A DNA stretch of 53,519 bases from a virus (lineage: Duplodnaviria > Caudoviricetes), in IMG/VR virus record IMGVR_UViG_3300020193_000033, positions 1 to 53,519 of that record, one strand, 5' to 3'. The first letter of the stretch is position 1. Each line of letters starts with the position of its first letter. Shown piece after piece: positions 10,396 to 42,763 of this stretch. Both the position numbers and the translations under genes were made by a program. The notes beneath the pieces are model-generated. The model ran no database searches. It was given only the letters and a program-made list of their open reading frames with translations, and was not told the origin of the DNA.

Positions 10396-10860
10396 ATGAG
10401 AACTGCATTAATATCACTTGAGGGCGTGCTGTGCACCGAAGTTGGAGATCCAATTCCAGACGGGATTAAACTATTTCGAGTATTAGCAGAGCATTATCGC
10501 ATCGCAATTGCTTCTGATCAGACACCAGAGTTAACAGAGCACTGGCTTAAATCTAATCTCATTGTTGGGTATGCGGAGATATATGATGATAAATACGCCT
10601 TTGAAGGGCAAGACCTACGCATGCGACAGCTCGACGTCGCTAGATCCCGGGGACGTGTTGAGATGTTTATAGATCCAGATATAGACCGCTGTGCCTACGC
10701 TGTAGAGAACAATGTACCTACATTGTTATTTGCTTCCCCTAAGTTTGTTAGAACTACACGTTCTATCAAGCCTTGGAAGACATTGTCGGAGGAAGTGGAG
10801 CGCCAACGTTTGGCCCTCCTTGAGGCTGAAATAGGTAGCAAGGTGAAAAGATTTGAATGA
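10396..10860 (+). CDS. HAD-fold protein with degenerate motif I
   Basis: ALISLEGVL in place of hhhDxDGVL; IAS (motif II), TEHWLK, MFIDPD (motif IV). Confidence 0.55.
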   Translation: MRTALISLEGVLCTEVGDPIPDGIKLFRVLAEHYRIAIASDQTPELTEHWLKSNLIVGYAEIYDDKYAFEGQDLRMRQLDVARSRGRVEMFIDPDIDRCAYAVENNVPTLLFASPKFVRTTRSIKPWKTLSEEVERQRLALLEAEIGSKVKRFE

Positions 10861-12350
10861 ACATAGTATTCCTAGGGGGAGAAGTACCCTCACATAGATT
10901 GCTGTTGATTGACAACGGGGTTAAGCACATTGGCGTAAGCTACTGGGGCTTGGCAAAGCGAGGCCTACCTAAGACCAAAGACTATCTATTATCAGAGAAG
11001 TACCCTGACGACGTAAAGCTGTATGTTGCCGGCGGCGGAGCTAATCCTAACCTGAGCAAGGCTGAGCTCGAAGAGCATGCGGCCAACTTTGAAGATTGGG
11101 TAGCAATTAACTATGATCGTATATCAGGGGTTATTGAGTTTGATGCACCAGCTCTCGGTCAAGACTGGATTGTCCAGCAGAGAAAGACTTTGGGCTTTGA
11201 GCTCGGAGACAAGTATTGGCCCGTATGGCATTCGCAGCATGGACATCCGGCACTACTAGCTTTATCGGAGCAGTGGACTAACGTTGCTCTTCTAGGAGAG
11301 TCCATAGAAGCGGACGCTACCCTATCAGGACGCACCAGAGCCCTTCAGAACCAGTTTGGAACTAACTTCCACGGTTTAGGGTGCGCCAAGCCTGACAACC
11401 TCAGACAAGTGCCTTTAACGACCGCTAGCACGCTCTCCTGGCTATCGCCAATGATGAGGGGCGAAACAATAGTTTGGGATGGAACTAAATTAGTAAGATA
11501 TCAGAAAAAGCAAAAAGACCAAGCACGTCCTCGTTATAAAGCTGTTATAGAACGAGCAGGTTTGGACTTCGACAAGATTATTAATGATGATAGTAACGAG
11601 GTAACTCGCCTCGCTATTTGGAGCTACCTGCAGTTGGAGGACGCATTGGATAAAAAGAAACCACCACACTTACGTCTGTTATCTGATAACAGTGATGATA
11701 AGGATACCGCAGGTTCTGCGGAAACACTAGGGTTGGAACCTGATAACAAGGGTGTTGAGATGCGGAAAGAAACTGCTTCTGCAACTATAAACATAGTTCC
11801 TAGAGATCCATCAGAAACTATGAATTTACCCGTATTTTCAGTATCTACGAAGAGAGTTATAGATAAAGACGAAGAAGGAAGGGACCTGATAAGAGACGTA
11901 AACGTGCTTGGATCTAACCAGTCTTCATTACGTCAATGTAATACGTGTTTTGTAGCAGCAAACTGTCCTGCATTTAAAGCAGATTCAACATGTGCATTCA
12001 ACCTTCCAGTAGAGGTTAAGACTAAAGATCAACTTAAGGGATTGCTCAACGCCATCATAGAGATGCAAGGTGCTAGAGTTGCCTTCTCTCGTTACGCCGA
12101 GGAATTAAACGGCGGATACCCAGATCCAAATACTGGACAAGAAATAGATCGACTATTTAAGATTGTAAAACAACTGAAGGAGCTGGAGGACAACCGAGAG
12201 TTCGTCAGGATGACCGTAGAACGACAGACCTCTGGAGGTGTTATGTCTGCCCTTTTTGGGGATAGAGCTAACACTCTGAGACAACTGCCCAACGATGGAT
12301 TATCCGAGGCGGAAACTAGTAAAATTATCTCTGAACATATCGAAGACTGA
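10857..12350 (+). CDS. TGT/DpdA-like barrel fused to a Cys-cluster/helical C-terminal domain
   Basis: VSY, EFD, PVWH, FHGLG and SW...RG motifs in TGT-like order; C-terminal CNTC...C...C. Confidence 0.55.
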   Translation: MNIVFLGGEVPSHRLLLIDNGVKHIGVSYWGLAKRGLPKTKDYLLSEKYPDDVKLYVAGGGANPNLSKAELEEHAANFEDWVAINYDRISGVIEFDAPALGQDWIVQQRKTLGFELGDKYWPVWHSQHGHPALLALSEQWTNVALLGESIEADATLSGRTRALQNQFGTNFHGLGCAKPDNLRQVPLTTASTLSWLSPMMRGETIVWDGTKLVRYQKKQKDQARPRYKAVIERAGLDFDKIINDDSNEVTRLAIWSYLQLEDALDKKKPPHLRLLSDNSDDKDTAGSAETLGLEPDNKGVEMRKETASATINIVPRDPSETMNLPVFSVSTKRVIDKDEEGRDLIRDVNVLGSNQSSLRQCNTCFVAANCPAFKADSTCAFNLPVEVKTKDQLKGLLNAIIEMQGARVAFSRYAEELNGGYPDPNTGQEIDRLFKIVKQLKELEDNREFVRMTVERQTSGGVMSALFGDRANTLRQLPNDGLSEAETSKIISEHIED

Positions 12351-12365
12351 GGAGGGGGGTTTATT

Positions 12366-14420
12366 TTGTTTTCATTTAAACTAACAGAAGAGTTTGTGAA
12401 CGGGTATCGAGGAGAGCCAGTACCTTGGGGCTATAAAGATGCTGCGGGTAACTCGGTAGGTGAGATTACCTTTCTAAGAACATACTCTCGGCTTAAAGCA
12501 GACGGCACTAAAGAGACATGGGTAGACGTTTGTGAACGGGTTATCAACGGCATGTACTCTCTTCAGAAAGACCACGCAAAGACGAACCGTTTACCTTGGA
12601 ACGATTCCAAAGCCCAATCCTCAGCCAAAGAAGCATTTGATCGGCTATGGAATTTGAAGTGGACTCCACCAGGACGCGGACTATGGGTAATGGGAACTCC
12701 CATAGTCAATGAGCACAGAAATTCTGCAGCTCTTCAGAACTGCGCATTTGTATCAACCCTATCTATGACTAAAGTTGACCCCTCAAGACCTTTTGCATTT
12801 TTGATGGAAGCATCTATGCTGGGAGTTGGTGTTGGATTTGACAACAAAGGAGCGGATAAAGAATTTACAATCTACGCTCCGCAACAAGGAGAACAATATG
12901 TCATACCAGACACCCGAGAAGGATGGGTTGAATCCGTCATCCTCCTTATCAATGCCTACCTCAGACCAGATTCGAAAACTCCAGTATTTGATTACAAAGA
13001 GATTCGCCCAGCGGGAACGCCAATTAAGACTTTTGGCGGAACGGCAGCGGGACACGAACCGTTAGAAAGGCTTCATAACCATATCCGTCGTATCTTCGAT
13101 GGGAGGTCAGGTGAAAAGCTCACTCGTAAAGATATTGCTGATATCGGCAATTTTATCGGCGTTTGCGTCGTTAGCGGTAACGTACGCCGTAGCGCTGAAT
13201 TACTTATTGGTCGTATTGACGATTCTGACTTTCTCAACTTAAAGAATGCCGAGGTATATCCAGAGCGCAACAGCTACGATCCGACAAATCCTGGGTGGGC
13301 CTGGATGTCAAACAATTCAGTTGAAGTATCTGTAGGACAAGACCTAACTCCCATCATTGATGGTATTGCTCGTAACGGTGAGCCTGGAGTTATCTGGATG
13401 GACGTAACTAAGCAATATGGTCGTTTAGCAGATCCCATTAACAATAAAGACTGGAGAGCTGCTGGATACAATCCTTGTGCCGAGCAGTCTTTGGAATCTT
13501 TTGAATGCTGTACTCTTGTAGAAACATATCTCAATCGTCACGACAATCTTGAGGACTTTAAAAGAACTCTTAAGTTTGCATATCTCTATGCCAAGACTGT
13601 AACTCTTCTCCCAACACATTGGGAAGAGACAAATGCAATTATGCAGCGCAACCGCCGTATTGGAACATCTATTAGCGGAGTTGCCAACTTTGCAGACAAC
13701 CGTGGTTTACCGGAGCTTAGAACCTGGATGGATTCGGGATACGAAGTTATTAAGAACTATGATCGTACATACTCAGAGTGGTTAGGCATCAGAGAGTCAT
13801 TAAAGATGACTACAGTCAAGCCATCTGGAACAGTTAGCATTTTAGCGGGTGAATCTCCAGGAGTACATTGGCCAGTAGGTGGAAAGTATTTTCTAAGAGC
13901 TATTAGATTTGCTAATTCAGACCCAATGCTCCCATTATTCATAATGGCAAAGTATCGAGTAGAACCAGCAGTCGAGTCACCAGACACAACATCAGTTGTA
14001 TTCTTTCCGATCCAGTCAGGCGCAGTTAGGTCGGAGAAAGAAGTCTCTATCTATGAAAAGATTGGATTGGCAGCGACAGTTCAGAGATATTGGTCTGATA
14101 ATTCAGTTTCGGTAACTATCAGCTTTGACCCCGAGTCGGAGGGTAATCACATCGGAACTGTATTGCACATGTACGACGGTCAACTCAAGACGGTCTCATT
14201 CCTTCCGTCAGGAAATCACGTTTATCCCCAGATGCCATACACCCAAATTACAAAAGAAGAGTATGATGACGCAACTATGACCTTATTTCCTATAGACTTT
14301 GTTGGCGTATATGCGGGCATGGCGGCCGATGCTGTCGGAGAAGCATATTGCACCACAGATTCTTGTGAAGTAAAGCTAATCAAAGATAATAGTCAGGGGA
14401 AAGTACATGCAAGAAGATAA
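12366..14420 (+). CDS. nrdJ: Class II (B12-dependent) ribonucleotide reductase
   Basis: PPGRGLW, NCAF, NPCAEQ, CCTL, TVKPSGT, C-terminal CTTDSC; TTG start after a GGAGG-like RBS. Confidence 0.95.
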   Translation: MFSFKLTEEFVNGYRGEPVPWGYKDAAGNSVGEITFLRTYSRLKADGTKETWVDVCERVINGMYSLQKDHAKTNRLPWNDSKAQSSAKEAFDRLWNLKWTPPGRGLWVMGTPIVNEHRNSAALQNCAFVSTLSMTKVDPSRPFAFLMEASMLGVGVGFDNKGADKEFTIYAPQQGEQYVIPDTREGWVESVILLINAYLRPDSKTPVFDYKEIRPAGTPIKTFGGTAAGHEPLERLHNHIRRIFDGRSGEKLTRKDIADIGNFIGVCVVSGNVRRSAELLIGRIDDSDFLNLKNAEVYPERNSYDPTNPGWAWMSNNSVEVSVGQDLTPIIDGIARNGEPGVIWMDVTKQYGRLADPINNKDWRAAGYNPCAEQSLESFECCTLVETYLNRHDNLEDFKRTLKFAYLYAKTVTLLPTHWEETNAIMQRNRRIGTSISGVANFADNRGLPELRTWMDSGYEVIKNYDRTYSEWLGIRESLKMTTVKPSGTVSILAGESPGVHWPVGGKYFLRAIRFANSDPMLPLFIMAKYRVEPAVESPDTTSVVFFPIQSGAVRSEKEVSIYEKIGLAATVQRYWSDNSVSVTISFDPESEGNHIGTVLHMYDGQLKTVSFLPSGNHVYPQMPYTQITKEEYDDATMTLFPIDFVGVYAGMAADAVGEAYCTTDSCEVKLIKDNSQGKVHARR

Positions 14421-17306: not shown

Positions 17307-19301
17307 CTACCGTCTCGAGCGCTTACGAATGGCACCAGTAACTACCGCTTTGGCAAACGGCAGCAACTCTCCCGCATGGGATATACGACCAAAGATCTCA
17401 GCTTTGTGGGCTACAGTTTTCATATCTTTACCATCATAATGGCTTTTAAACGTTCTCTCGTCCATGATTAGAATTGTCGAAGTAAGAATACCTCGCTTTG
17501 CGATACGCTCAATAACCTCATCATTCGGGTTACTGTGGAAATCGCCATCGGTGATGATAAACAACATCTTATTCTTTTTGCGTGAAGACATGAGCAACTG
17601 CTCAGCCTCAAGCAATGCGGTATAAGGATTGGTTCCACCATCTCCGTAAATGAATTTATATTGCAAACGATCGGCTTTCTCGTTTCTACTGTATGCAACT
17701 TCATTCTGATCGTCAAAAGCGTATACAGTAACTGGAGCACCGATATGCTCAAGAGCACGTTTGATAGTCCAGCATGCAACAGACGCATTTCTATCGTTGT
17801 TTTTGTATGTCATAGAGCCAGATCTATCGATGCAAATTACTGCTTCAATATCACAGCTCTCGTCGCCTTCATCCCATCTATCAAATGCCACGTCAGGCTC
17901 ACACCCAGCCATGGCTCGTTTGATATTGAGTTTGCCTGATGGCGTTTCTCTAATCCAACCAGGTTCTGAGAGATCACGCAAGCGTTGCAGTTCTTTGGCA
18001 AATCTACGATAGTTTGTAATTGCCTCGTAGGGAATTGTTGTGTCGTCAAACTTGCCACGCTTACTTTGATCGTCATACTTACCATCGCCACCAACAATGA
18101 TTCGTTGCTTGGCTTTGATGTCGGTTATAACGTCTTTGTTGTTTAGAGTATCAAAGATGATATCCTCTAGCATGTCTCCAATGTGCTCTGGAATACCGCC
18201 AACACTAGGAGTATGACCTGAACCTATACTTGGGTCTAGGTGTTTGATTTCTTCTCGTATTGCTAGCGCTTCATCTACAGTGCGGTGAGTAACTTCAGAT
18301 TTTTCTTTATTACTGTTACCAGCACTAGGATTATCTTCTTTGTTTTTATTATTGTCGTTGCTATTTGTAGCTTTTGGTTTATTGTCGTTGCTATTTGTAG
18401 CTTTTGGTTTAGGTTTATATGTATAGTCAGATTCGGCTTTACCTTGACCTTTTGCTCGTTGAGCATCACGCTCTTGAGCTTTACCTGGCTCTGGTCTGCC
18501 TTTAACCATAGGTGCACGACCACCGCAGCCCGAAGGACCACCGTGAGTGCAGCCTGTGCTATCTGCAGGATTGCAGTTGTAAGCAGCAACCTGTTGTCTG
18601 ATTGCATCCAGTATTCCTGTGGGCTTGAGAATATACTCATTGAACTGTTCTATCAGTTCTATGGCTCTCTTGTAGTCTTTAGGAAATACCAACAACCTAT
18701 ACTCGTCGATGATTCTTGCGATAGTGGGAATAAGTTCGGGGTATGCAAACGCATCTCGGTATGCTTCTCGAACTTCTACCGGTAGATATCGACGACCACG
18801 TATAGCCAGATAGTTACCAGACGTGTCTGCGTCTTTAGAACTTAGCCAGCGAGCACAGGTGGCAGACAGATAAGGAATAACTGCAGGATATCTAGCAGTG
18901 AATAGCGTCTCGATACGTTGATCCTCGAGGATATTCATACTTTCCATTAGTTTATTCTCTATCACATACTTGACCATCTCTGTGCCTTTGCGAGGCGTAT
19001 ATAACTGATGACACAGCTCGTGATAATTTAGGCCGTTTACTTGTGTCAATGTTTCCAAATCCATTTCTAGAATTTCAGAAGCATTGAGCGTGATTGTCGC
19101 ACCGTCAGACCACGCTGGTGCGGGACCTTCTTTTACGACATTCACAACAATCGGATCGCCAGTTAGGACACGATCTGCTTGTTCATACACACGACTTAGA
19201 GTTCCAAGTTGTAATGCACGTTCCTGCACATCTTCCTCTCTAACTTCCCTTTGCCAACTAAATCCTTGATAAATATCATCAAGGTCATTTATAAGAGGCA
19301 T
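17307..19301 (-). CDS. vWA-domain protein with N-terminal HExxH domain (CobT/NorD-like MoxR partner)
   Basis: HELCH...NILEDQRIE; low-complexity linker; SGKLNI; MIDAS DRSGSM, GGT, ITDG. Confidence 0.85.
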   Translation of the reverse strand: MPLINDLDDIYQGFSWQREVREEDVQERALQLGTLSRVYEQADRVLTGDPIVVNVVKEGPAPAWSDGATITLNASEILEMDLETLTQVNGLNYHELCHQLYTPRKGTEMVKYVIENKLMESMNILEDQRIETLFTARYPAVIPYLSATCARWLSSKDADTSGNYLAIRGRRYLPVEVREAYRDAFAYPELIPTIARIIDEYRLLVFPKDYKRAIELIEQFNEYILKPTGILDAIRQQVAAYNCNPADSTGCTHGGPSGCGGRAPMVKGRPEPGKAQERDAQRAKGQGKAESDYTYKPKPKATNSNDNKPKATNSNDNNKNKEDNPSAGNSNKEKSEVTHRTVDEALAIREEIKHLDPSIGSGHTPSVGGIPEHIGDMLEDIIFDTLNNKDVITDIKAKQRIIVGGDGKYDDQSKRGKFDDTTIPYEAITNYRRFAKELQRLRDLSEPGWIRETPSGKLNIKRAMAGCEPDVAFDRWDEGDESCDIEAVICIDRSGSMTYKNNDRNASVACWTIKRALEHIGAPVTVYAFDDQNEVAYSRNEKADRLQYKFIYGDGGTNPYTALLEAEQLLMSSRKKNKMLFIITDGDFHSNPNDEVIERIAKRGILTSTILIMDERTFKSHYDGKDMKTVAHKAEIFGRISHAGELLPFAKAVVTGAIRKRSRR
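18349..18411. repeat. 30-bp tandem duplication in the vWA linker
   Basis: TTATTGTCGTTGCTATTTGTAGCTTTTGGT x2, encoding KPKATNSNDN twice. Confidence 0.9.
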
Positions 19302-19312
19302 TTATATCCTTT

Positions 19313-20719
19313 CTAGTGTGAAGGGACAAAACCACCAACCCACTGTTCAAGTTCTTGCTCAGGGGTCAATGACTCTTCGGGTTGTACAACAGTGACTGGA
19401 ATTTCAATTCCGAAGTCAGACTTGATATTGTGTTCGTGGGTCTGGAATACGAGACGAACAGACGCTGCTTCTTCTGGTGTGAAGTGAGCAATGAAGTTCT
19501 CAACAGCAAACTCGTAGTTCAATCCATTTACAAATTCCATAAACTCCATCAACATATTTGTGGAGATAGGGGTTTCGTATTGACCTTTGTTTGCTTCTAC
19601 ACGAAGCTGACGAGCCACAACAAGTAACGCTTTTGAACTGACCAATTTGGACTCGACTTTGTCATCGTAATCCCACGGGATTTGGATGTCAAAACGATTG
19701 CGAAACGCAAAGTTTAGAGGCGTTGTACCGATGTAATCAGGATTCATGGTAGCGAAGATAGTCAGGTCTGGATGAGCCTGAATTGTTTCGCCCATGTGGT
19801 CCAACAATTGCAATGTACGCTGCGAACCTGTCGCTGGATACAATGTGGTGTAGATTTTTGGATTGATAAAGTTGACCTCATCGAGGAGCAACGAGCCACC
19901 GTTACGAAATACATCAGTAACAGGACCGTCAATCCAAACCCACTGACCATTTAGCATGATCATTTTGCCAAACATTTGACTTGGTTCGAGCGATGCATTG
20001 CCAGATACGGTTGCGAGTTTTAGCCCGCGGGAAGCACACCAAGCCTCGACAGATGAAGTCTTGCCGGGACCTGTTGGACCGTAAATAAGAACATTTACCT
20101 GATTGGCACGAGCATAGTCATAGATTTCGAAGTCTTGTTTACCCCAAATCGTACGACTGACGTAACGTTCGGCTATTTCCTTTCTTGGCACTGTTGCTAG
20201 AGCAGCATGTGTTGGCGCATATGTTTGTGGCATTGCGTTAATTTCCGCTGCTGGCTGTGCGATTGTTTGTGTTGGAGCAGCTGCAACTGGCACCACAGAG
20301 CCGGCTTGACGACGACCATCGATAACATATTCCTCGAGTGATTCGTCGCGTTCGGATACCTGTGAATAAATATCTGGGAGGATATCATTCAAGTTATCTG
20401 TGGATACGGTTGCTTTTGTATGAGACTGACACGCTTTCGTGCCAAGAACAGGGGAATAACCCTTGCTCGTCATAGCACGCTCATCAGCAGATGTAACATA
20501 TACACCAACTGGAGTGCGTGTGAGTTGCTCGGCTGCACCGATCTGTCCCACGAGTATGTCGTACTCAGTTTCCTCCCATTTATTGTGAGGACCCTTAGTC
20601 CCATCAGTGACCCGTGTGTAGATTCTTACGAGTTCGCCACCATGTGGCGTAATGAGAACTTGACGGCGTTTTGCTCCCATTATCGGCTCGTAGGATTCTG
20701 TGAATATAGCGATATCCAT
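19313..20719 (-). CDS. MoxR/CbbQ/CobS-family AAA+ ATPase
   Basis: Walker A GPTGPGKT, Walker B LLLDEVN, ATMNP, AFRNRF. Confidence 0.9.
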   Translation of the reverse strand: MDIAIFTESYEPIMGAKRRQVLITPHGGELVRIYTRVTDGTKGPHNKWEETEYDILVGQIGAAEQLTRTPVGVYVTSADERAMTSKGYSPVLGTKACQSHTKATVSTDNLNDILPDIYSQVSERDESLEEYVIDGRRQAGSVVPVAAAPTQTIAQPAAEINAMPQTYAPTHAALATVPRKEIAERYVSRTIWGKQDFEIYDYARANQVNVLIYGPTGPGKTSSVEAWCASRGLKLATVSGNASLEPSQMFGKMIMLNGQWVWIDGPVTDVFRNGGSLLLDEVNFINPKIYTTLYPATGSQRTLQLLDHMGETIQAHPDLTIFATMNPDYIGTTPLNFAFRNRFDIQIPWDYDDKVESKLVSSKALLVVARQLRVEANKGQYETPISTNMLMEFMEFVNGLNYEFAVENFIAHFTPEEAASVRLVFQTHEHNIKSDFGIEIPVTVVQPEESLTPEQELEQWVGGFVPSH

Positions 20720-22244: not shown

Positions 22245-22944
22245 ATGCTGCTATCGCTTTCTCTAGTTCGCTTGGTTTGTGATTTATCAATATGCCTTGT
22301 TGTAGGCGCAATGGTGAGCCGTCCCACAGCATGCTTTGATAGCCTGCTCCGTAAACGGCTTTTCCACTTCCATTACAACGAGAACAAGTCTCTGCTCTGG
22401 GAATGTAATGACTTTGGGTTTGTCCATGTTCACATGGGTGCTTGTGCTCTAGTGAAGGGCTCCCCTCTAAGGGTTCCCATCTTGGTTGTATGGTGCACTC
22501 TTTGCCATATGAGCACCACCAAACTTGACACCAACCATCTACTAATCCAGAACCACCGCAACGTCTGCATTTGCATAATTTGCCTGGTTTGTTTTTAGCA
22601 TCTTGAAACACCACATGTATTTTATGTTTGCGTTGATATACATCACGAAGGTTTGCAAAGTCTCTGTAGACTGTGCGTGTACTCCATGAATACAATGGGT
22701 TGTGTGATCTACCCCAATGAGTTTGATAATTTTTGGCTTGTATAGTTGTCGTACCATCTGCATGATACGTAACTAATGTTTGCTGATTCCATCTACAGAA
22801 CACTTCAATGTCTGAAGATGTAGTTATGTTCCCAGTTCCTGGTACACGCCGTAGTGCAAGACCACGTGTGTAGAGCGGGCGCTCCCACTTACGCTTACCT
22901 CTACTGAGCCAATCAGCAGCACTTTGATAGTTGTCAACTATCAT
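22228..22944 (-). CDS. Protein with DnaJ-type Zn-finger repeats
   Basis: CRRCGGSG and CSRCNGSG; GAGG RBS. Confidence 0.7.
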   Translation of the reverse strand: MIVDNYQSAADWLSRGKRKWERPLYTRGLALRRVPGTGNITTSSDIEVFCRWNQQTLVTYHADGTTTIQAKNYQTHWGRSHNPLYSWSTRTVYRDFANLRDVYQRKHKIHVVFQDAKNKPGKLCKCRRCGGSGLVDGWCQVWWCSYGKECTIQPRWEPLEGSPSLEHKHPCEHGQTQSHYIPRAETCSRCNGSGKAVYGAGYQSMLWDGSPLRLQQGILINHKPSELEKAIAAYVSIS

Positions 22945-23237
22945 TGATACACCTCTTTCTCACGATTGATGTATTCAAACGTGCGCTCCCTCTCTGCTTC
23001 TTGAATACGATCAAGTTCTTGCTTGGATACTTGTTCGTCCTCTTCGAACCAATTAATAGAGATGGGAAACCTTCTTGCTCTTTCTGGTGAGAGAGCATAT
23101 AGAATGTCACCCATTCCGTCAATGACTCCAGAGTGGTAGGCACGACTGTGCATGTTGTCTAAATCCTGAGCGTCTAACTCAGAACGAAGCATCATGTCTT
23201 CAATCAGCTTGAGAACTTTCTTTTTTCTCATATACAT
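22941..23237 (-). CDS. Hypothetical protein
   Basis: Start refined to MYMRKKK after an AGAAAGG RBS. Confidence 0.7.
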   Translation of the reverse strand: MYMRKKKVLKLIEDMMLRSELDAQDLDNMHSRAYHSGVIDGMGDILYALSPERARRFPISINWFEEDEQVSKQELDRIQEAERERTFEYINREKEVYQ

Positions 23238-23408
23238 ATGTGCCTTTCTGCCACGTGCCATGTGTTGACACGAGCGTGCCCACGTAAACTTTGACGCTTA
23301 CATGGGCTTGACTAGATGTAACCGCTAGTCCGGTATTGCGAGGGAGGACATATTCAACCCTACAAGTCAATTGACACCATTGGTGATCCCCCGTGCAAAC
23401 CTGAATGA

Positions 23409-23677
23409 TTAGATGACACATTGAATTACTTGTGGAATTGTGCGAGACTCGCTACACAGCCCCTCTTGCATCGCAGAACTACATACATGGTGAATGTCAT
23501 GACCACTTCACTATGCCTCTGCTCTTACTTAGATAGGTAACTACCTCAGAGCCTGTACCTCAAGCACCTAAGTCCGTACTGTTTTGCTTCTTCACGCTCG
23601 CTGTAGTTTCGCAGTTACACCCTACTACAGGTTACGTTCTCAGTTACAATCACAAGCCTATTCAATGTGTCTTCTAA
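23409..23677 (-). ncRNA. Candidate multi-helix structured RNA of about 270 nt
   Basis: Ends pair over about 30 bp (GACACATTGAAT 23415-26 with ATTCAATGTGTC 23660-71, plus flanking helices); internal helices with G-U on the minus strand; no credible ORF. Confidence 0.6.
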
Positions 23678-23710
23678 GAGCTCTTTTTTTGTCAAGTCAT
23701 GCTCAGGACT
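23678..23710 (-). repeat. Pseudoknot motif, copy 1
   Basis: AGUC-CUGAGCAU-GACU-UGACAAAAAAAGA-GCUC. Confidence 0.6.
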
Positions 23711-23884
23711 TTGATTTGTTTTCTGCCAACGGAGCCCATCTATTGTCTAGCAATAGGAATGGGACGTATCTGGCTGCGGAACTTCTGCTGTTCCGGTGCT
23801 CCCTTATTTATCGTCGCGAGCACGACGTCCCTTCCTTTCGATGCAAGCACCTACTAGGCGAGAACTCTATTTTTGTCACGATAT

Positions 23885-24391
23885 TTACCAAGATGACTGG
23901 TAATAGAATGAAAGTTTATCGAAATCAGGTCTATCGATAAGAGGCTGAAGTTGATTAATGGTCTCCATTAGACCTTCCCAATACCACCCGTCTATGTCCG
24001 TTCCGCCAAAGAAAAATCCTCCTCTCGGCGGTATTAGATTAGGGTTTTTATTGGCAACGGCAAAAGTACACAGTCTAACTAATTCTCTCAATTTTTCATG
24101 CGATACATAGTATTCGCCACAGTCGTCCTCGCCATTCTGCACATTCTCTACGAACCAGCCATGAACCGCATTGACCTTGCGCCAATATGCAACATTCACG
24201 GTAACATCTAGCCCATAAATACTTTCTCTATCGACTAGAGTAGTTAATCCAGCAGACTTAACAACATTATCCCATTGTGGGAATGTCGCTTCGGAATAGC
24301 GAGTTTCGCTTCCAAAGTTATCTCTATCTAATTTATTCCAGTCGGTTTTCTCAATATGCTTTCTAGCACTTAAGTACATATCTAAACCCAT
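23885..24391 (-). CDS. Conserved phage early protein (MGLDMYL...YWRK...GFFFG...YQSSW type)
   Basis: Recognisable motifs of a widespread uncharacterised phage family; AGAAAGGA RBS. Confidence 0.8.
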   Translation of the reverse strand: MGLDMYLSARKHIEKTDWNKLDRDNFGSETRYSEATFPQWDNVVKSAGLTTLVDRESIYGLDVTVNVAYWRKVNAVHGWFVENVQNGEDDCGEYYVSHEKLRELVRLCTFAVANKNPNLIPPRGGFFFGGTDIDGWYWEGLMETINQLQPLIDRPDFDKLSFYYQSSW

Positions 24392-36692: not shown

Positions 36693-36891
36693 AGTAGAAC
36701 GGCGAGTTGAGTCGTTACCTACTTCTGAATTACTGCAGTGGGCAGAACAAGCGTTGTATCCAATTGGACGAAACCTATCGTCATGGCAAAAAACCAATGA
36801 AGAAGTTTATTTGGAAGAGGCTAGATTGAACGCGGAAGTTATTTACGTCATAGTAGATACTATATCCAAGAGGCAAAATGCAAGATTTTAA
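36643..36891 (+). CDS. Small helical protein upstream of terminase
   Basis: Start refined to MFGLGGKK; overlaps the terminase start. Confidence 0.65.
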   Translation: MFGLGGKKIKQERQKTKVERRVESLPTSELLQWAEQALYPIGRNLSSWQKTNEEVYLEEARLNAEVIYVIVDTISKRQNARF

Positions 36892-38458
36892 TAAAGACCA
36901 ATTTGAAGAGCTAGGAGAAGAGCTAGACTTTGAAGAAGAAGAGCTGCAGGACGAGGAAGAAGAACAGCTAGATGAGCTCTCTAGAGAGTTTGTTAATCTT
37001 CTTATAGAAAAAATAGTTCAATTTATGGCAATGCTGGTTGGACACCAGCTACACCCCTATCAAATGCCTCTAGCTAGACGAGTAATAGAATCTGTAATTA
37101 TAAACGATGGTGAAGAAGTAACCGCTCTTGCCGCACGTCAGTCTGGTAAATCAGAGACTATTGCTAATACCGTGGCTACGCTTATGGTTATTCTTCCACG
37201 CCTTGCAAAGATGTACCCAGATCTTTTAGGTAAGTTTGGAGACGGTATTTGGGTGGGAATGTTTGCTCCTATCCAATCACAGGTAGAAACCTTGTACGGT
37301 AGAACAGTTTCCCGTTTGACTAGCCAACGTGCTTTAGAAGTCCTTGGAGATCCAGAAATAGATGACATACCAACTAAAACTCCAGGTATTGTAAAAAATA
37401 TAAAGCTTAAGAACTCTGGCTCTACGCTAATGATGATGACCGCTAACCCACGAGCTAAGATCGAATCTAAGTCCTTCCACTTAATTATTATTGATGAGTG
37501 TCAAGATGCTGACGATTTCGTAGTTTCTAAGTCTATTGCTCCTATGGGTGCGTACTACAACGCCACTCTAGTAAAGACTGGAACCCCAACTACAATCAAA
37601 AACAACTTCTACAGAGCTATTCAATTAAACAAACGACGTCAAACTTCTAGGTCAGCTAAGCAGAATCATTTTCAATGGGATTGGAAAGACGTTGCTAAGT
37701 TCAACCTTAACTATGAAAAATTCATTAAAAAAGAAATACTACGCATCGGAGAGGATTCAGATGAGTTCCAGCTATCGTATAACTGTAAATGGCTTTTGGA
37801 AAGGGGCATGTTCGTTACCTCGTCTATTATGGACAACCTTGGTGACACGTCCCAAGAGTTGGTTAAGAGCTGGCATAGGTCGCCAGTTGTGGTCGGAATC
37901 GACCCCGCAAGAAAGATGGACTCTACAGTTGTTACTGTTGTCTGGGTCGATTGGGATAGGCCTGATGAATTTGGTTATTATGATCATCGTGTTCTTAATT
38001 GGCTAGAGATGCAGGGAGATGATTGGGAAGAGCAATACTTTCAAATAGTTAACTTCTTAGAAAATTATGATGTTTTAGCTATTGGTGTAGATGCAAACGG
38101 AGTAGGCGACGCTGTAGCAAGCCGTATGAAAATACTTATGCCTAGAGCTGAGGTTATTTCAATTACCTCTAGCCCATCAGAGCAATCTAGACGTTGGAAA
38201 CACTTGCAGGCCCTAATTCAACGACAGATGGTTTCTTGGCCTGCCCATGCAAAAACCCGTCGTCTGCGTCTTTGGAAGAAATTTCACCAGCAAATGTCAG
38301 ATGCTGAAGTCAAATACAGGGGGGCTAACTTTTCCGTAGCTGCCCCTGACGAAGCTCATGCTCACGACGATTTTGTAGACTCTTTAGCACTTGCCTGCTC
38401 ATTAACCCAGGATATGGTTATGCCTACGGTGGAGGTTAGCTCCTCCCCATTTTTTTAA
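36878..38458 (+). CDS. terL: Terminase large subunit
   Basis: Q motif HPYQ, Walker A ARQSGKS, Walker B IIIDECQ, TGTP, nuclease GIDPA and HDDFVDS. Confidence 0.95.
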   Translation: MQDFNKDQFEELGEELDFEEEELQDEEEEQLDELSREFVNLLIEKIVQFMAMLVGHQLHPYQMPLARRVIESVIINDGEEVTALAARQSGKSETIANTVATLMVILPRLAKMYPDLLGKFGDGIWVGMFAPIQSQVETLYGRTVSRLTSQRALEVLGDPEIDDIPTKTPGIVKNIKLKNSGSTLMMMTANPRAKIESKSFHLIIIDECQDADDFVVSKSIAPMGAYYNATLVKTGTPTTIKNNFYRAIQLNKRRQTSRSAKQNHFQWDWKDVAKFNLNYEKFIKKEILRIGEDSDEFQLSYNCKWLLERGMFVTSSIMDNLGDTSQELVKSWHRSPVVVGIDPARKMDSTVVTVVWVDWDRPDEFGYYDHRVLNWLEMQGDDWEEQYFQIVNFLENYDVLAIGVDANGVGDAVASRMKILMPRAEVISITSSPSEQSRRWKHLQALIQRQMVSWPAHAKTRRLRLWKKFHQQMSDAEVKYRGANFSVAAPDEAHAHDDFVDSLALACSLTQDMVMPTVEVSSSPFF

Positions 38459-38540
38459 GGTTTAGATACCTAAATGTCTAAATTAGGCCGATACTTTTAC
38501 CTGAGGAACCTCAACTCAACACCCTATAGGAGAAATAAAC

Positions 38541-38948
38541 ATGGCAGTGAATAACATCGCACCAGCCCCTCAGTTCCCTGAGAAGGTTGGCGCAAATTAT
38601 GAACGCAAAATGTCTCCTGCAACTCCGGGAATGCGTGGTCCGCTACGCTTTGAAGAAGGCGTTGCAACAGACACAGATATCCCAAATGACTTTCAAGTGG
38701 GATTGGATCAGGGGTATGACGTACCACCTACCCGTCCAAATCACAACATGAATGTCATGGAGAAGTATCCTGAAGAGACAATGAAACAACGCGCCCACGT
38801 CGGCTCAGCCGCATGGGTAGAAGGTCCAGCATACGTCAATGAATTTTCACAAGGCGGATATGGAGATCACTCTCAGGTCGAAATTGAAGAAGTCATTCGT
38901 TCAGGTGCTCGCTATCAGCGTGTAAACCCTGCACAGGTAGCTGACTAA
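38541..38948 (+). CDS. Hypothetical head-region protein
   Basis: AGGAG RBS; lies between terminase and portal. Confidence 0.75.
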   Translation: MAVNNIAPAPQFPEKVGANYERKMSPATPGMRGPLRFEEGVATDTDIPNDFQVGLDQGYDVPPTRPNHNMNVMEKYPEETMKQRAHVGSAAWVEGPAYVNEFSQGGYGDHSQVEIEEVIRSGARYQRVNPAQVAD

Positions 38949-38960
38949 TACAGTAGACTA

Positions 38961-39003
38961 TAGGTTCCCAGCCTCGTATTCCCTTCTCCGGGGCTGGGGC
39001 CTA
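38961..39003 (+). terminator. Long hairpin, probable terminator or processing stem
   Basis: TAGGTTCCCAGCCTCG / CGGGGCTGGGGCCTA followed by ATTT. Confidence 0.55.
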
Positions 39004-39033
39004 ATTTAATATTAAACAAATAAGGATGAGGTA

Positions 39034-40752
39034 ATGGCTGGCGGAATAGATTTTTCACCCCCAAGTTATAGAGCAGCATCCTCTGATTTAACAATCTCAA
39101 TTTCTCCACTTGGATTAGTGGAATTAGCAGATGAAGAATTTGAAGTTCACGGCCCACGCCTAAATCGTTACTCTCTTAACTGGGCAATGTACCTTGGTCA
39201 TCACTGGTCATATCGTCGTGAGATCGGTGAAGCTCAAATGGTTTATAACTATTACAGAGCGTTTACAGATTACATAATTAATTTTACTTTTGGCAGAGGC
39301 GTACAGTTTAGAAGCCCTGCAGCTACAGAAGCTGTTATCCCAGATATTTTAAAAAGAGTTTGGGAAGTAGACAACGATAGAAGCTCTATTCTTTGGGAAA
39401 TGGGACAGCAAGGCGGAGTCTCAGGAGATTGTTTTGTTAAAGTAGCTTACGAAGAAGCTTACGTTGATCCTATTGGTCGCGCTAACCCAGGTAAGGTACG
39501 CATTCTTCCGCTAAACGCTTCTTTTTGTTTTCCAGAGTTTCATCCACACGATCGTTCCCGCCTAATTCGTTTTAAGCTTAAGTATCGTTTCTGGGGCACA
39601 TCTGCAGAAGGTACTCGTCAGGTTTATACCTATACTGAAATTCTTACTGATGATCGCATTGAAGAGTATATCAATGACGAGATGATTGACTCACGCCCTA
39701 ATCCAATTGGCATAGTTCCTATCGTCCATATTCCAAATGTGCGTATTTCTGGATCTCCTTGGGGTCTTTCTGATTGCCACGACATTATCGTCTTAAATAG
39801 AAATTACAATGAGGTAGCAACAGATATCGCAGACATCATTAACTACCACTCTGCTCCAGTTACCGTTATTATCGGTGCTAAGGCGTCTTCTCTAGAAAAG
39901 GGTCCTAAGAAGGTTTGGGGCGGTCTTCCAAAAGATGCTCAAGTATTTAACCTAGAAGGTGGCGGTTCAGGCTTAGCGGGCGGTCTACAGTATCTAGAAA
40001 CTGTTAAAAGAGCTATGCACGAAATGGTAGGAGTTCCAGAGACAGCTCTAGGTCAAGTACAGCCAATCTCTAATACCTCCGGAGTTGCTCTTTCAATTCA
40101 ATATCAGCCGTTGATGAATCGTTATAATCAAAAGCTTATTCAATACGGCGAAGGCATACAGAAGATTAATAGCCTAGTTCTTAAGACTCTTGCCTTTAAA
40201 GAGCCAGAAGTCTTTATCTATAACCCAATGGTTAATGGTCCTATCAAGAACTACCAGCTTCCAGCTTTAGATTTAAACAGCCCAACAACTTTTGAAAGCA
40301 CAGTTTACTTCCCACAACCACTACCTCTAGACAAGTTGATAGTATTAAGTGAAATTGAACGGAAGATGCAGCTGGGCCTAGAAAGCCGTGAAGGAGCTTT
40401 GCGTCACTTAGGCGAAGAGTTTCCAGACGAGAAGCTTGAAGAAATTAGAGCCGAGCTCATTTCTGACGCTAAGGCTGATGGGGCTATCCAGCTAGTACGT
40501 AATCAAATTGCTTCGTCCATTGCTTCTTTAACAGGCATCCTTCCAAACGGAGAGGCACCCCCAGGATTAAAGCCTGGAGACGGTACCGGCCCTGGTCCAT
40601 TTGGACAACCTGGGGTTGTAAGTCCAGCAGAGGGAGTAGTTTTAACTGAGCTAGCCCAACTACAGGCTGAGCTGGTAACCGAAGCGTACGGCACTAAAAT
40701 GCCTATGCGTCGTACTCCAGATGAAAAATACCCAGATCAGTCTATAGGATAA
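39034..40752 (+). CDS. Portal protein (SPP1 gp6-like)
   Basis: Position after terL; NYYRAFTD, NPIGIVPIVHIPN, SGVAL motifs. Confidence 0.88.
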   Translation: MAGGIDFSPPSYRAASSDLTISISPLGLVELADEEFEVHGPRLNRYSLNWAMYLGHHWSYRREIGEAQMVYNYYRAFTDYIINFTFGRGVQFRSPAATEAVIPDILKRVWEVDNDRSSILWEMGQQGGVSGDCFVKVAYEEAYVDPIGRANPGKVRILPLNASFCFPEFHPHDRSRLIRFKLKYRFWGTSAEGTRQVYTYTEILTDDRIEEYINDEMIDSRPNPIGIVPIVHIPNVRISGSPWGLSDCHDIIVLNRNYNEVATDIADIINYHSAPVTVIIGAKASSLEKGPKKVWGGLPKDAQVFNLEGGGSGLAGGLQYLETVKRAMHEMVGVPETALGQVQPISNTSGVALSIQYQPLMNRYNQKLIQYGEGIQKINSLVLKTLAFKEPEVFIYNPMVNGPIKNYQLPALDLNSPTTFESTVYFPQPLPLDKLIVLSEIERKMQLGLESREGALRHLGEEFPDEKLEEIRAELISDAKADGAIQLVRNQIASSIASLTGILPNGEAPPGLKPGDGTGPGPFGQPGVVSPAEGVVLTELAQLQAELVTEAYGTKMPMRRTPDEKYPDQSIG

Positions 40753-40869
40753 AACACTAGATTTAGGCAGACAAATTGACAAAAGTTTGCCAGCCTAATA
40801 CCACCAATAAATCCGCAGGTCATCGTGGCACTAAATCGGACAACGACCTCCAAAACCTAAGGGACAACC

Positions 40870-41643
40870 ATGGCAGAAACAACGAATATCGTTGATGCTC
40901 CAGACGTCAAAGATGCATTTTTAACTGACGTTCCGGCAGCAACGGAAACTAAAGCAGAACCCGCTGTAAGTGAAGTTAACGAAAAAACTTACACAGAATT
41001 AGATCTAAAAAGAGTGCGGGAGCAAGAGAAGTCAAAGCTCTACCCTCAAATAGATTCGCTTAAAGAAGAGCTCGCCTTGCTTAAAAAGGAACGAGAAGAG
41101 CGATTGGCAGAGGCAGAACGCCAAAAGGCTGAAGCGGAAGCTGAGGCAAGGCGCAAGGCTGAGTCAGAAATGGATGTACGCCAACTTCTTGAAGCTAAGG
41201 AAAAAGAGTGGCAGCAAAAGCTAGAAGAAGAGAAATTAGAGCGTGAACGCACGTTTGCTCTACTCCAGAGAGAGCGTCAGTATGCGGAAGTCACCGAATA
41301 CCGCAATCGTCGCCTCGAAGAAGAGCGGGATAACATCATCCCAGAGCTCGTAGACCTGATCTCAGGAAATAATCCTGAAGAGATCGAACAAAGTATTGCA
41401 GGGTTGCGTGAAAGATCTTCACGAATTCTGGAATCGGCGCAGACTGCTATGCAGAATGCCCGTAAAGAAATGACAGGCAGCCGGGTAACCGCGCCGCCGA
41501 CCGGACCGATGGACACTAATTTGGAGCAAAATCAGTTAACGGCAGAACAAATATCCGCCATGTCGGTTACCGAATACGCAAAACACCGATCTAAGCTACT
41601 TGGAAAAGCAGCAAACGATCGAAATAAGGGAATCTTCGGGTAG
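40870..41643 (+). CDS. Capsid scaffolding protein
   Basis: E/K/R-rich coiled coil directly upstream of the capsid gene; C-terminal MS..EY...R. Confidence 0.82.
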   Translation: MAETTNIVDAPDVKDAFLTDVPAATETKAEPAVSEVNEKTYTELDLKRVREQEKSKLYPQIDSLKEELALLKKEREERLAEAERQKAEAEAEARRKAESEMDVRQLLEAKEKEWQQKLEEEKLERERTFALLQRERQYAEVTEYRNRRLEEERDNIIPELVDLISGNNPEEIEQSIAGLRERSSRILESAQTAMQNARKEMTGSRVTAPPTGPMDTNLEQNQLTAEQISAMSVTEYAKHRSKLLGKAANDRNKGIFG

Positions 41644-41686
41644 TAATACCTATCTAACAACTTAATAACTAAGGAGAAAACCGACT

Positions 41687-42763
41687 ATGGCATCAGCCGT
41701 AACAGGTACCGGCAATTTAGCTGCCGCACCTACCGCGTACTCTGGTTCTAACAGCCAGTTGACGCAAGCAATCCAAACAATCTGGTCAAAGGAAATTCTT
41801 TTCCAGTCGATGCCAATCCTCCGCTTTGAACAGTTCGCTGTTAAGAAGACAGAGCTTGGCGTTGCACCTGGTCTCCAGATTAACTTTATGCGTTACAACA
41901 ACTTAGGTTTTGCATCAGCACTTGTTGAAGGTGTTCGTATGCAGACCAACGCATTGACCGCACAGCAGTTCTCTATTACCGTTGCAGAGCAGGGCTATGC
42001 AATTGCAGTATCTGAACTCTTGCTCAATGCTTCTTTTGATGACGTAATGGCTTCGGCTTCACGTCTTCTTGGCCGTAATATGGCCCTCTATCTTGATGGC
42101 CAGGCTCGTGACACACTCATGGCAGCATCTTCCGTTATCTACGGTTATGATCGTTCTGCTAACACTGCTGTTAACGACTGGTATACCTCAGGAACCGTTG
42201 GAACTAACCGCGCTTCTTTGACTGGTAACTTCAATTTAACAACATCAACAGTTAAGGACGCTGTTGAGACCCTCGCAACCAAGAACATTCCAAGGCTTGG
42301 AGAGACTTACGTTGCGTTTATTCACCCACACCAGAGCCGTCGTCTTCGTGATCTCCCAGAGTTCATTGAAGTAACCAAATACGCTGCTCCAGGTAACTTC
42401 ATGCTCGGTGAGATTGGTCGTTTGTACGACACAGTCTTCATTGAGACCACTCAGATCCAGAAGGTAACAAACGGTGCAGGCACAGGTTATTCTGCAGACA
42501 CCGACGTTGCTGCTGGCTCCATTGTCTACCCAACTGGTGGAGGTTATACCACCCCAGTAACAAAGACCGGTAACGGTAATAAGGATCGCTACACCGCGAT
42601 CTTCATTGGTGACAATGCATTTGGTCACGCGATCTCTCTTCCAGTCGAACTCCGCGATGGCGGTATTCTTGACTTCGGTCGTGAGCACGCTCTTGCTTGG
42701 TACGCTATTTACGGTCTTGGTCTAATTACTGACCAGTCTGTAGTCTTGGCAGAAACCAACTAA
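41687..42763 (+). CDS. Major capsid protein (N4-gp56-like, HK97 fold)
   Basis: LVEGV, EQG.AI.VSE, YVAFIHP, GEIGRLY..VFIET; strong AAGGAG RBS. Confidence 0.92.
   Translation: MASAVTGTGNLAAAPTAYSGSNSQLTQAIQTIWSKEILFQSMPILRFEQFAVKKTELGVAPGLQINFMRYNNLGFASALVEGVRMQTNALTAQQFSITVAEQGYAIAVSELLLNASFDDVMASASRLLGRNMALYLDGQARDTLMAASSVIYGYDRSANTAVNDWYTSGTVGTNRASLTGNFNLTTSTVKDAVETLATKNIPRLGETYVAFIHPHQSRRLRDLPEFIEVTKYAAPGNFMLGEIGRLYDTVFIETTQIQKVTNGAGTGYSADTDVAAGSIVYPTGGGYTTPVTKTGNGNKDRYTAIFIGDNAFGHAISLPVELRDGGILDFGREHALAWYAIYGLGLITDQSVVLAETN

Follow-up and report, generated by a model that had tools for sequence, protein, structure and literature searches.

The window analysed here, meaning the whole stretch of 53,519 nucleotides, is a 53.5-kb tailed-phage contig with an estimated completeness of 44%. 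Its genes include those for a terminase, a portal protein, a major head protein, a tail-fibre protein, a ribonucleotide reductase, and a DpdA-like transglycosylase. The major head protein is 73-75% identical to those of the Streptomyces phages LuckySocke, Alone3, pSt2308, GiJojo, and BRock, whose genomes are about 113 kb in length. From this capsid similarity, the abundant freshwater Actinobacteria may be inferred as possible hosts of the lake phages that carry the RNA described below. All 24 sequencing runs listed with the window DNA are lake, freshwater, or wastewater DNA metagenomes; no RNA sequencing run with the region is among the runs listed. Two gene pairs of the window can be mentioned in passing. 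An AAA_5 ATPase (468 aa) adjoins a protein of 664 aa whose C-terminal domain is of the von Willebrand A type, and the two resemble a CobS/CobT-like pair (region 17307-20719, minus strand), and the DpdA-like queuine tRNA-ribosyltransferase homologue adjoins the ribonucleotide reductase (region 10857-14420, plus strand).

The RNA is located in a block of small minus-strand genes, within a 623-nt gap between the open reading frames (ORFs) 23885-24391 and 22941-23261, and the packaging genes lie elsewhere, at 36878-42763. The upstream ORF encodes 168 aa and belongs to a PHROG without known function. Pfam and PHROGs searches with the flanking ORFs and with the ORFs overlapping the RNA returned only families of unknown function, and these neighbouring proteins gave no functional clue. 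No tRNA or tmRNA gene was found, and no tRNA genes lie near the RNA. The called start of the downstream ORF, at 23261, is probably wrong; the syntenic relative L037 has no ATG at that place, and AGAAAGG followed by 5 nt and an ATG is kept in both sequences (window ATG at 23237-23235). With the latter start, the downstream gene would encode 98 aa rather than 106. The features of the RNA are collected in Table 1.

Table 1. Features of the structured RNA, with positions in the window and the evidence on which each rests
Feature	Position	Strand	Evidence
Conserved RNA unit in full, about 269 nt, with P1 as closing stem	23409..23677	-	covariance model R1 and BLAST ends
P1, 5' strand of the long closing stem with internal loops	23645..23675	-	pairs with 23411-23441
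P1, 3' strand	23411..23441	-	alignment
P2, 5' strand GAGA	23638..23641	-	pairs with UCUC 23444-23447
P2, 3' strand UCUC, within the conserved GUGAGUCUCACG block (window GCGAGUCUCGC)	23444..23447	-	alignment
P3 (23635-23637 with 23594-23596), around hairpin P4	23594..23637	-	covariation
P4 (23624-23629 with 23602-23607), 16-nt loop	23602..23629	-	covariation
Pseudoknot, 5' strand GUAACUGC, in the P4 loop	23611..23618	-	pairs with GUAGUUAC
Purine-rich junction GAAGAAGCAAA, near-invariant	23583..23593	-	alignment A5
P5 (23578-23582 with 23456-23460), around the P6/P7 arm and the P8 arm	23456..23582	-	5/5 pairs double-changed
P6 (23565-23576 with 23524-23535), with inner hairpin P7	23524..23576	-	covariation
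P7 hairpin	23547..23555	-	100% paired; 2/3 pairs double-changed
Pseudoknot, 3' strand GUAGUUAC, in the P6 internal loop, immediately 5' of the P6 3' strand	23537..23544	-	covariation
P8, long hairpin	23472..23522	-	4/4 pairs double-changed (helix 11)
P8 apical 9-nt loop GGUCAUGAC, self-complementary core UCAUGA	23496..23504	-	alignment

A first-pass annotation, made from this one sequence, had drawn a closed multi-domain RNA here, and the five helices of that drawing are all present at the minus-strand positions where it had placed them. These are the closing stem P1 (UUAGA-A-GACACAUUGAAU..CUUGUG-AUUGU with ACAAU..CACAAG..AUUCAAUGUGUC-A-UCUAA), P2 (GAGA/UCUC), P4 (CUGUAGU/ACUACAG), P6 (ACUUAGGU/AUCUAAGU), and P8 (GCAGAG-GCAUA/UAUGU..UUCUGC). 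P3, P5, P7, and the pseudoknot were absent from it and are newly identified in the current work. In the resulting layout, P1 leads into P2, from which the P3/P4 arm and the P5 arm branch off, and P5 carries P6/P7 and P8. The junction strands GAAGAAGC, ACGCAA, and GUGAG are purine-rich and almost invariant. GAAGAAGC is retained in 26 of 28 sequences, and the P1-anchored pattern used on the metagenomes did not select for it. Folding of a single sequence leaves the question of structure undecided (z-score -2.91 for the minus strand and -4.85 for the plus strand), but comparison with relatives shows that it is more than chance.

The phage GenBank collection gave no match to positions 23200-23900 with blastn in distant mode, and a pattern requiring both 12-nt arms of P1 gave no match among viral contigs. 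The upstream 168-aa gene is shared by 35 viral loci, which share no further neighbouring gene and in which the intergenic region gave no blastn match at E<=1e-3. The downstream gene led to three loci, L037-L039, which are syntenic with the window and mutually identical in this region. They are 72.6% identical to window positions 23861-22860, with compensatory changes visible. Patterns drawn from conserved blocks then yielded L044 and L046-L050, 30 metagenome loci (L051-L080), and L101-L106. In all, pattern scans and the covariance model R1 gave 48 further loci on viral and lake metagenome contigs, with 30 distinct sequences. Of these sequences, 28 come from the window and 42 loci and form alignment A5; L101 and L106 bring two more. 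All loci put to R1 pass, with scores of 169-298 bits; twelve duplicate loci were left out of this search. Nearly all homologues were found by exact patterns taken from the RNA itself, so the invariance of the pattern positions, and the apparent breadth or narrowness of the family, are partly artefacts of the search.

Several pattern matches were rejected as chance. L041 has no blastn match to the window region, and its pattern match is within coding-looking sequence; L045, likewise within coding-looking sequence, shares only the 23 pattern bases; and none of the 11 bacterial metagenome-assembled contigs L090-L100 passes the model at E<=1.

The base pairs are supported by comparison of the 28 distinct sequences in A5. 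Canonical pairs fill 96.0% of 1901 pair cells, against 86.4% in shuffled alignments, and only 32-44% are paired when the partners are slid by 1-3 columns as a control. Changes on both sides were observed in 31 of 68 pairs (shuffled, 19.4±2.0), and the covariation score is 0.324 (shuffled, 0.154). None of 500 shuffles reaches the observed value in any of these three measures. The 68 pairs comprise the RNAalifold structure and the pseudoknot on the same alignment; RNAalifold itself predicts 60 pairs for the 28 sequences, and 26 of these are changed on both sides. In the MAFFT alignment, the gap in P8 is misplaced and the type 2 pseudoknot (see below) is off by one column, so that both are under-counted.

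Support extends over the individual helices. The 25 pairs of P1 are paired in 98.9% of cells and six are changed on both sides; some P1 positions were fixed by the search patterns, and invariance there is partly due to the way in which the sequences were found. P2 is 100% paired, with pair 41-242 occurring as AU in 22 sequences, GC in 4, and GU in 2, and P1 and P2 together form a closing stem of roughly 35 bp. P3 and P4 are also 100% paired, with changes on both sides in 2 of 3 and 4 of 6 pairs, respectively. Among the paired cells, 180 are G·U and 15 are A·C, and R1 scores 15.7-22.6 bits on the antisense strand against 241-298 bits on the sense strand. It follows that a single strand is constrained and that the folded strand is the gene strand.

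Base pairs held by compensatory change beyond both shuffled and slid controls are the criterion for a conserved structured RNA, and this criterion is satisfied. The earlier proposal would have failed if homologues did not conserve the helices; instead, these are conserved in the 28 distinct sequences with covariation beyond that of shuffles. A conserved RNA structure on the minus strand is real almost beyond doubt.

Columns of the P4 loop covary with those that immediately precede the P6 3' strand, and the 8-bp pseudoknot formed by these strands ties the P4 arm to the P6 arm. In type 1 (16 sequences), GUAACUAU pairs with AUAGUUAC, and all eight positions are paired in 16 of 16 sequences. Compensatory variants of this type are found in the window (GUAACUGC/GUAGUUAC), in L064 (ACAACUAU/AUAGUUGU), and in L051 and L071 (GGAACUAU/AUAGUUUC). 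The 12 sequences of type 2 have a different P6; here G(G/A)CUA(A) pairs with (U)UAG(U/C)C, the register being shifted by one column, and the middle pair varies among A-U, G·U, and G-C. When compared with shuffled loops, the type 1 duplex gives z of about -2 to -4. The type 2 duplex is not significant in the same comparison; its G-rich loops pair readily with anything. A different pseudoknot, between a hairpin loop and the downstream 3' tail of the relatives, was considered and dropped for lack of covariation between the loop and its candidate partner.

The ends proposed for the unit were borne out. R1 matches the window at 23408-23678 on the minus strand (242.1 bits, E 3.9e-70), and in L044 and L047, whose flanks are unrelated to the window, BLAST similarity begins at 23677 and ends at 23411. 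Similarity that starts and stops at these positions in unrelated contexts indicates that the ends are those of the conserved unit. The R1 search found one copy of the RNA per complete genome of about 102 kb, in 3 of 3 genomes. It gave no further copy in the window, nor in loci totalling 529,636 bases, where each source gave one sense match. The RNA is absent, by the same model, from five related viral records, two of them complete. Nothing convincing was found by R1 in three cultured Streptomyces phage genomes, the one match there having 11.3 bits (E 0.045). Two exact patterns found no true copy in a prokaryote collection of 185,579 species with one genome per species. The RNA was thus found only on viral and lake metagenome contigs.

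A sharp-ended unit that occurs in two different flanking contexts might be a miniature inverted-repeat mobile element, or some other DNA feature such as an origin or a cruciform, with the terminal repeats serving as protein-binding ends. The outer arms of the unit do form an 18-nt inverted repeat, 94% complementary with arms 233 nt apart (repeat scan), as in the short non-coding miniature inverted-repeat transposable elements, and related phages carry the unit unevenly (none of 5 related records has it, 3 of 3 others do). Such elements differ from the present RNA, however, which is single-copy in each of the three complete genomes, keeps one orientation with respect to the genes throughout, and has no evident target-site duplication, no direct repeat flanking its ends. 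Moreover, compensatory changes occur in all internal helices and in the pseudoknot, and the preference for G·U over A·C shows that one strand is constrained. The copy number and the strand-specific covariation through the interior effectively exclude a mobile DNA element.

A self-splicing intron was also rejected. No intron model matches, and the flanking genes are complete in relatives: residues 1-168 of 168 of the upstream gene are matched in 33 of 35 loci, in which the RNA is not beside the gene, and residues 1-104 of 106 of the downstream gene in 3 of 3 loci.

In the first-pass annotation, the RNA was suggested to be either a new class or a compact relative of ROOL, GOLLD, raiA, or Ms1, and a strong hit to a known family was named as the result that would remove its novelty. 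The scope of Rfam 15 includes ROOL, GOLLD, raiA, OLE, 6S/Ms1, Y RNA, group I and II introns, RNase P, and tmRNA. No family matches the whole window at gathering score. At E<=10, the region 23150-24000 gave only two eukaryotic chance matches of 15-16 bits, against gathering scores of 47-65, and seven homologous loci at E<=5 likewise gave only two eukaryotic chance matches. Novelty is therefore not removed. The new-class alternative is supported by the covariation, its strand specificity, and the lack of an Rfam match, and a compact relative finds no support in the same scans. Full-text literature searches gave no description of such an RNA, which is weak evidence since the sequence is not searchable as text. 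The RNA very probably represents a new family.

Comparison with known systems shows both likenesses and differences. Similar to ROOL and GOLLD, the RNA is phage-borne and elaborately structured with pseudoknots, and has no known protein partner and no known function; GOLLD was, as its name says, first found in lake metagenomes. Unlike those RNAs, the present one is much smaller, at about 270 nt, has no tRNA genes nearby and no Rfam match, and its oligomerisation is only inferred, from one loop. OLE and raiA are chromosomal and bacterial, the raiA motif being present in many bacterial species, Actinobacteria included, and neither model matches; the present RNA was found on viral and lake metagenome contigs only. 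The pRNA of phage phi29 has paired 5' and 3' ends and multimerises by loop-loop pairing; the two loops involved differ from each other and are complementary, and the resulting ring sits on the packaging motor of a small phage. It resembles the present RNA in being phage-encoded and closed at its ends, but there is no sequence or model match, and the present RNA lies in a small-gene block away from the packaging genes.

The most specific mechanistic prediction that the data allow concerns the apical loop of P8. The P8 stem covaries strongly, including the loop-closing pair 182-192. Most sequences have AGACGCGAC as the loop; five, the window among them, have GGUCAUGAC, and UUCUAGAC and UUCGCGGC occur once each. 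Among the 27 sequences with this apex, the core is CGCG in 21, CAUG in 5, and CUAG in 1, so that the central dinucleotide changes from GC to AU or UA and every one of the 27 cores is self-complementary. A U in column 185 lengthens the core to UCAUGA or UCUAGA. No other column was found to covary with the apex core. The criterion that a hairpin-loop core be self-complementary, and stay so on variation, is thus met in the apex-bearing sequences. Neighbouring bases cannot pair within one chain, and pairing between two copies is therefore the simplest reading.

Palindrome switching of this kind has precedents. In the report by Kretsch et al. (Nature 2025, PMC12286853), the symmetric kissing loops of OLE and GOLLD are supported by a tetranucleotide that switches among palindromes, from GGCC to GAUC or AGCU. 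The same report describes OLE as an RNA-only dimer with such a symmetric kissing loop, and assemblies of ROOL and GOLLD that use kissing loops, with palindrome-preserving covariation in a GOLLD loop (PMC12286853). The switching among CGCG, CAUG, and CUAG in the present RNA parallels that of OLE. A similar loop layout, in unrelated biology, is that of the HIV-1 dimerisation initiation site, which serves dimerisation of a retroviral genome: it has a 9-nt loop with a 6-nt self-complementary core and unpaired flanking bases, and variants of its core remain palindromic.

The palindrome argument rests on three core variants only, with a chance of roughly 1 in 16. Self-pairing of the P8 loop between two RNA copies, with dimerisation inferred from this one loop, can be put forward only tentatively. 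In the L057 group (L057 and L106 among the distinct sequences), P8 is shortened and the palindrome is absent. The shortened-P8 subgroup comprises L057, L103, L105, and L106, along with the sequence-identical L076-L078, and provides a natural 'mutant' for comparison; L057 and L106 also have no downstream terminator-like hairpin.

The evidence for a real, discrete structured RNA would fit a monomer equally well, namely a trans-acting decoy or scaffold whose P8 loop binds a dimeric protein or another nucleic acid rather than a second copy. Palindromic sequences are the targets of dimeric proteins, and the L057 group manages without the palindrome. In the present RNA, however, the palindrome lies in a 9-nt single-stranded hairpin loop and not in a duplex, and self-complementarity that survives sequence change in 27 of 27 apex sequences is the published signature of a symmetric kissing loop (PMC12286853). 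A monomeric decoy is held to be quite improbable.

Further information is found in the sequences on either side of the RNA. In 26 of the 28 distinct sequences, a common 5' flank (GTAATACACC, a short spacer, TTCCCCGCGAAG, and TTGAGATGGA) precedes the RNA despite differing upstream genes. The promoter scan found no sigma-70-like promoter beside the RNA. The flank occupies the 45 nt before the RNA in L044, L046-L075, and other loci; it begins with GTAATACACC and overlaps the stop codon of the upstream gene, whichever that is. In 9 of the 26 flank-bearing sequences, the motif TTCCCCGCGAA is tandemly duplicated. GTAATACNCC occurs 3-5 times per 100-kb genome (G006-G008) against no occurrence of the reversed control, with three copies on one strand within 4 kb in G008. 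It could be a promoter specific to the phage or a signal that marks gene boundaries.

After the RNA, the relatives have a small covarying hairpin and a purine-rich Shine-Dalgarno (SD)-like stretch. A strong hairpin with a U-run follows 70-115 nt past the RNA in 20 of the 28 loci with at least 150 nt of downstream sequence, and an SD with a start codon lies within about 60 nt in 7 loci. The common neighbouring ORF families all share the strand of the RNA and are of unknown function; downstream genes belong to different families between loci. A 66-aa zinc-ribbon-like ORF, usually upstream, was rejected as a consistent partner: G006 and G007 have it, but the RNA-bearing complete genome G008 does not, and the window has only a weak 18-residue match. 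Within the stretch 60-120 nt past the RNA, nine loci (L047, L051, L059, L061, L064, L068, L069, L071, and L080) have the SD-like AGAGAAAGGGG immediately ahead of the terminator-like stem and the next ATG directly past the U-run, so that folding of the stem would juxtapose SD and ATG. This arrangement resembles the split ribosome-binding site of T4 gene 38.

The order of RNA, terminator, and gene keeps a cis-acting leader a serious rival, although in our estimation an unlikely one. The RNA would then be the 5' part of an mRNA and control the genes that follow, either as a riboswitch, with the downstream hairpin and U-run as its expression platform, or as a polymerase-modifying antitermination element, in the manner of the put RNAs of phage HK022, which let transcription pass terminators by modifying the polymerase. 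The location on the same strand as all flanking genes, the terminator-like hairpin before the next gene, and the nearby SD and ATG in 7 loci are all consistent with a leader, and a multi-helix junction closed by P1 and containing a pseudoknot is the typical layout of an aptamer. The downstream genes are, however, unrelated between loci; the window and L037 have neither a terminator nor an adjacent start codon, but 170 nt of other conserved structure in between; a P1 of about 35 bp is far too stable for a switching helix; and no convincing alternative pairing between RNA and terminator was found on inspection. Elements of the put type are also several-fold smaller than 270 nt.

A discrete trans-acting RNA, its transcription being inferred, is favoured with modest confidence. 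This preference follows from a P1-closed core that is the conserved unit whatever flanks it, from the RNA's own 3' terminator-like hairpin in most relatives, from the variation of the genes that follow, and from a closing stem more in keeping with a stable RNA than with a switch. Both the common 5' flank and the terminator-like hairpin are missing from the window and L037, as are the small covarying hairpin and the purine-rich SD-like stretch that follow the RNA in other relatives; the discrete transcript is thus least supported in the window itself. In these two, other conserved structured DNA is found on both sides of the RNA instead.

The best explanation of these observations, with a probability of roughly 0.55, is that the window encodes a minus-strand RNA of about 270 nt, a member of a phage non-coding RNA family not catalogued before, and that this RNA is discrete, trans-acting, and possibly dimeric; transcription and function are inferred. 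In this model, the RNA would be made as a discrete, stable species within the small same-strand gene block of the phage, ending in most relatives at its own terminator-like 3' end, and would act in trans rather than as the leader of one particular gene. The self-complementary 9-nt apical loop of P8 could join two copies by base pairing into a homodimer with a symmetric kissing loop, or into a larger assembly, comparable to the solved structures of OLE, ROOL, and GOLLD. One guess is that the assembled RNA captures a host or phage factor in early infection.

The full form of this proposal, a compact 270-nt RNA that self-assembles via the palindromic P8 loop into a symmetric dimer or larger RNA-only complex and is made early to capture a host factor, remains doubtful. 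If true, it would be a small and tractable addition to natural RNA quaternary structures, and the first from actinobacterial-phage relatives in lakes. Non-coding RNAs that are large, intricately folded, and without known function are rare and were mostly catalogued years ago, and each new ornate RNA is a source of new architecture, lately of RNA-only assemblies. Advantages of the present family are a set of about thirty natural variants that covary richly, a pseudoknot that stands out clearly, a loop that is a candidate for self-pairing, and a size suited to chemical probing and cryo-EM. A function in host takeover, if there is any, would be new biology for the system of lake phages and Actinobacteria.

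The conserved DNA beside the RNA in the window has features of its own. Between the upstream gene and the RNA, the 185 nt at 23678-23862 (minus strand) are conserved and non-coding, and common to the L037 group only. They contain a near-invariant 33-nt block (CGCCTAGTAG..GCATCGAAAGGAAGGGA) and several hairpins, and in the comparison of two sequences 6 of 28 predicted pairs are changed on both sides. This region may be a second structured RNA, and is presumably what the first-pass annotation called 'pseudoknot copy 1'; its core motif occurs only once in the window. On the other side, 23238-23408 (minus strand) contains conserved hairpins between the RNA and the next gene, namely a 12-bp hairpin (GCCCAUGUAAGC..GUUUACGUGGGC) and a second hairpin ending at the SD, with 8 of 42 predicted pairs changed on both sides relative to L037. 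A similar hairpin with an SD stands ahead of an apparently homologous gene in G008, and the region therefore looks like the downstream gene's own 5' UTR. Finally, an 18-nt direct repeat, TGACAAAAA(A/T)AGAG(C/T)TCT, occurs at 23677-23694 and 23861-23878 (minus strand), 184 nt apart. It is not conserved in L037; each copy lies just 5' of a structured non-coding domain and could be a promoter or the site of a regulator.
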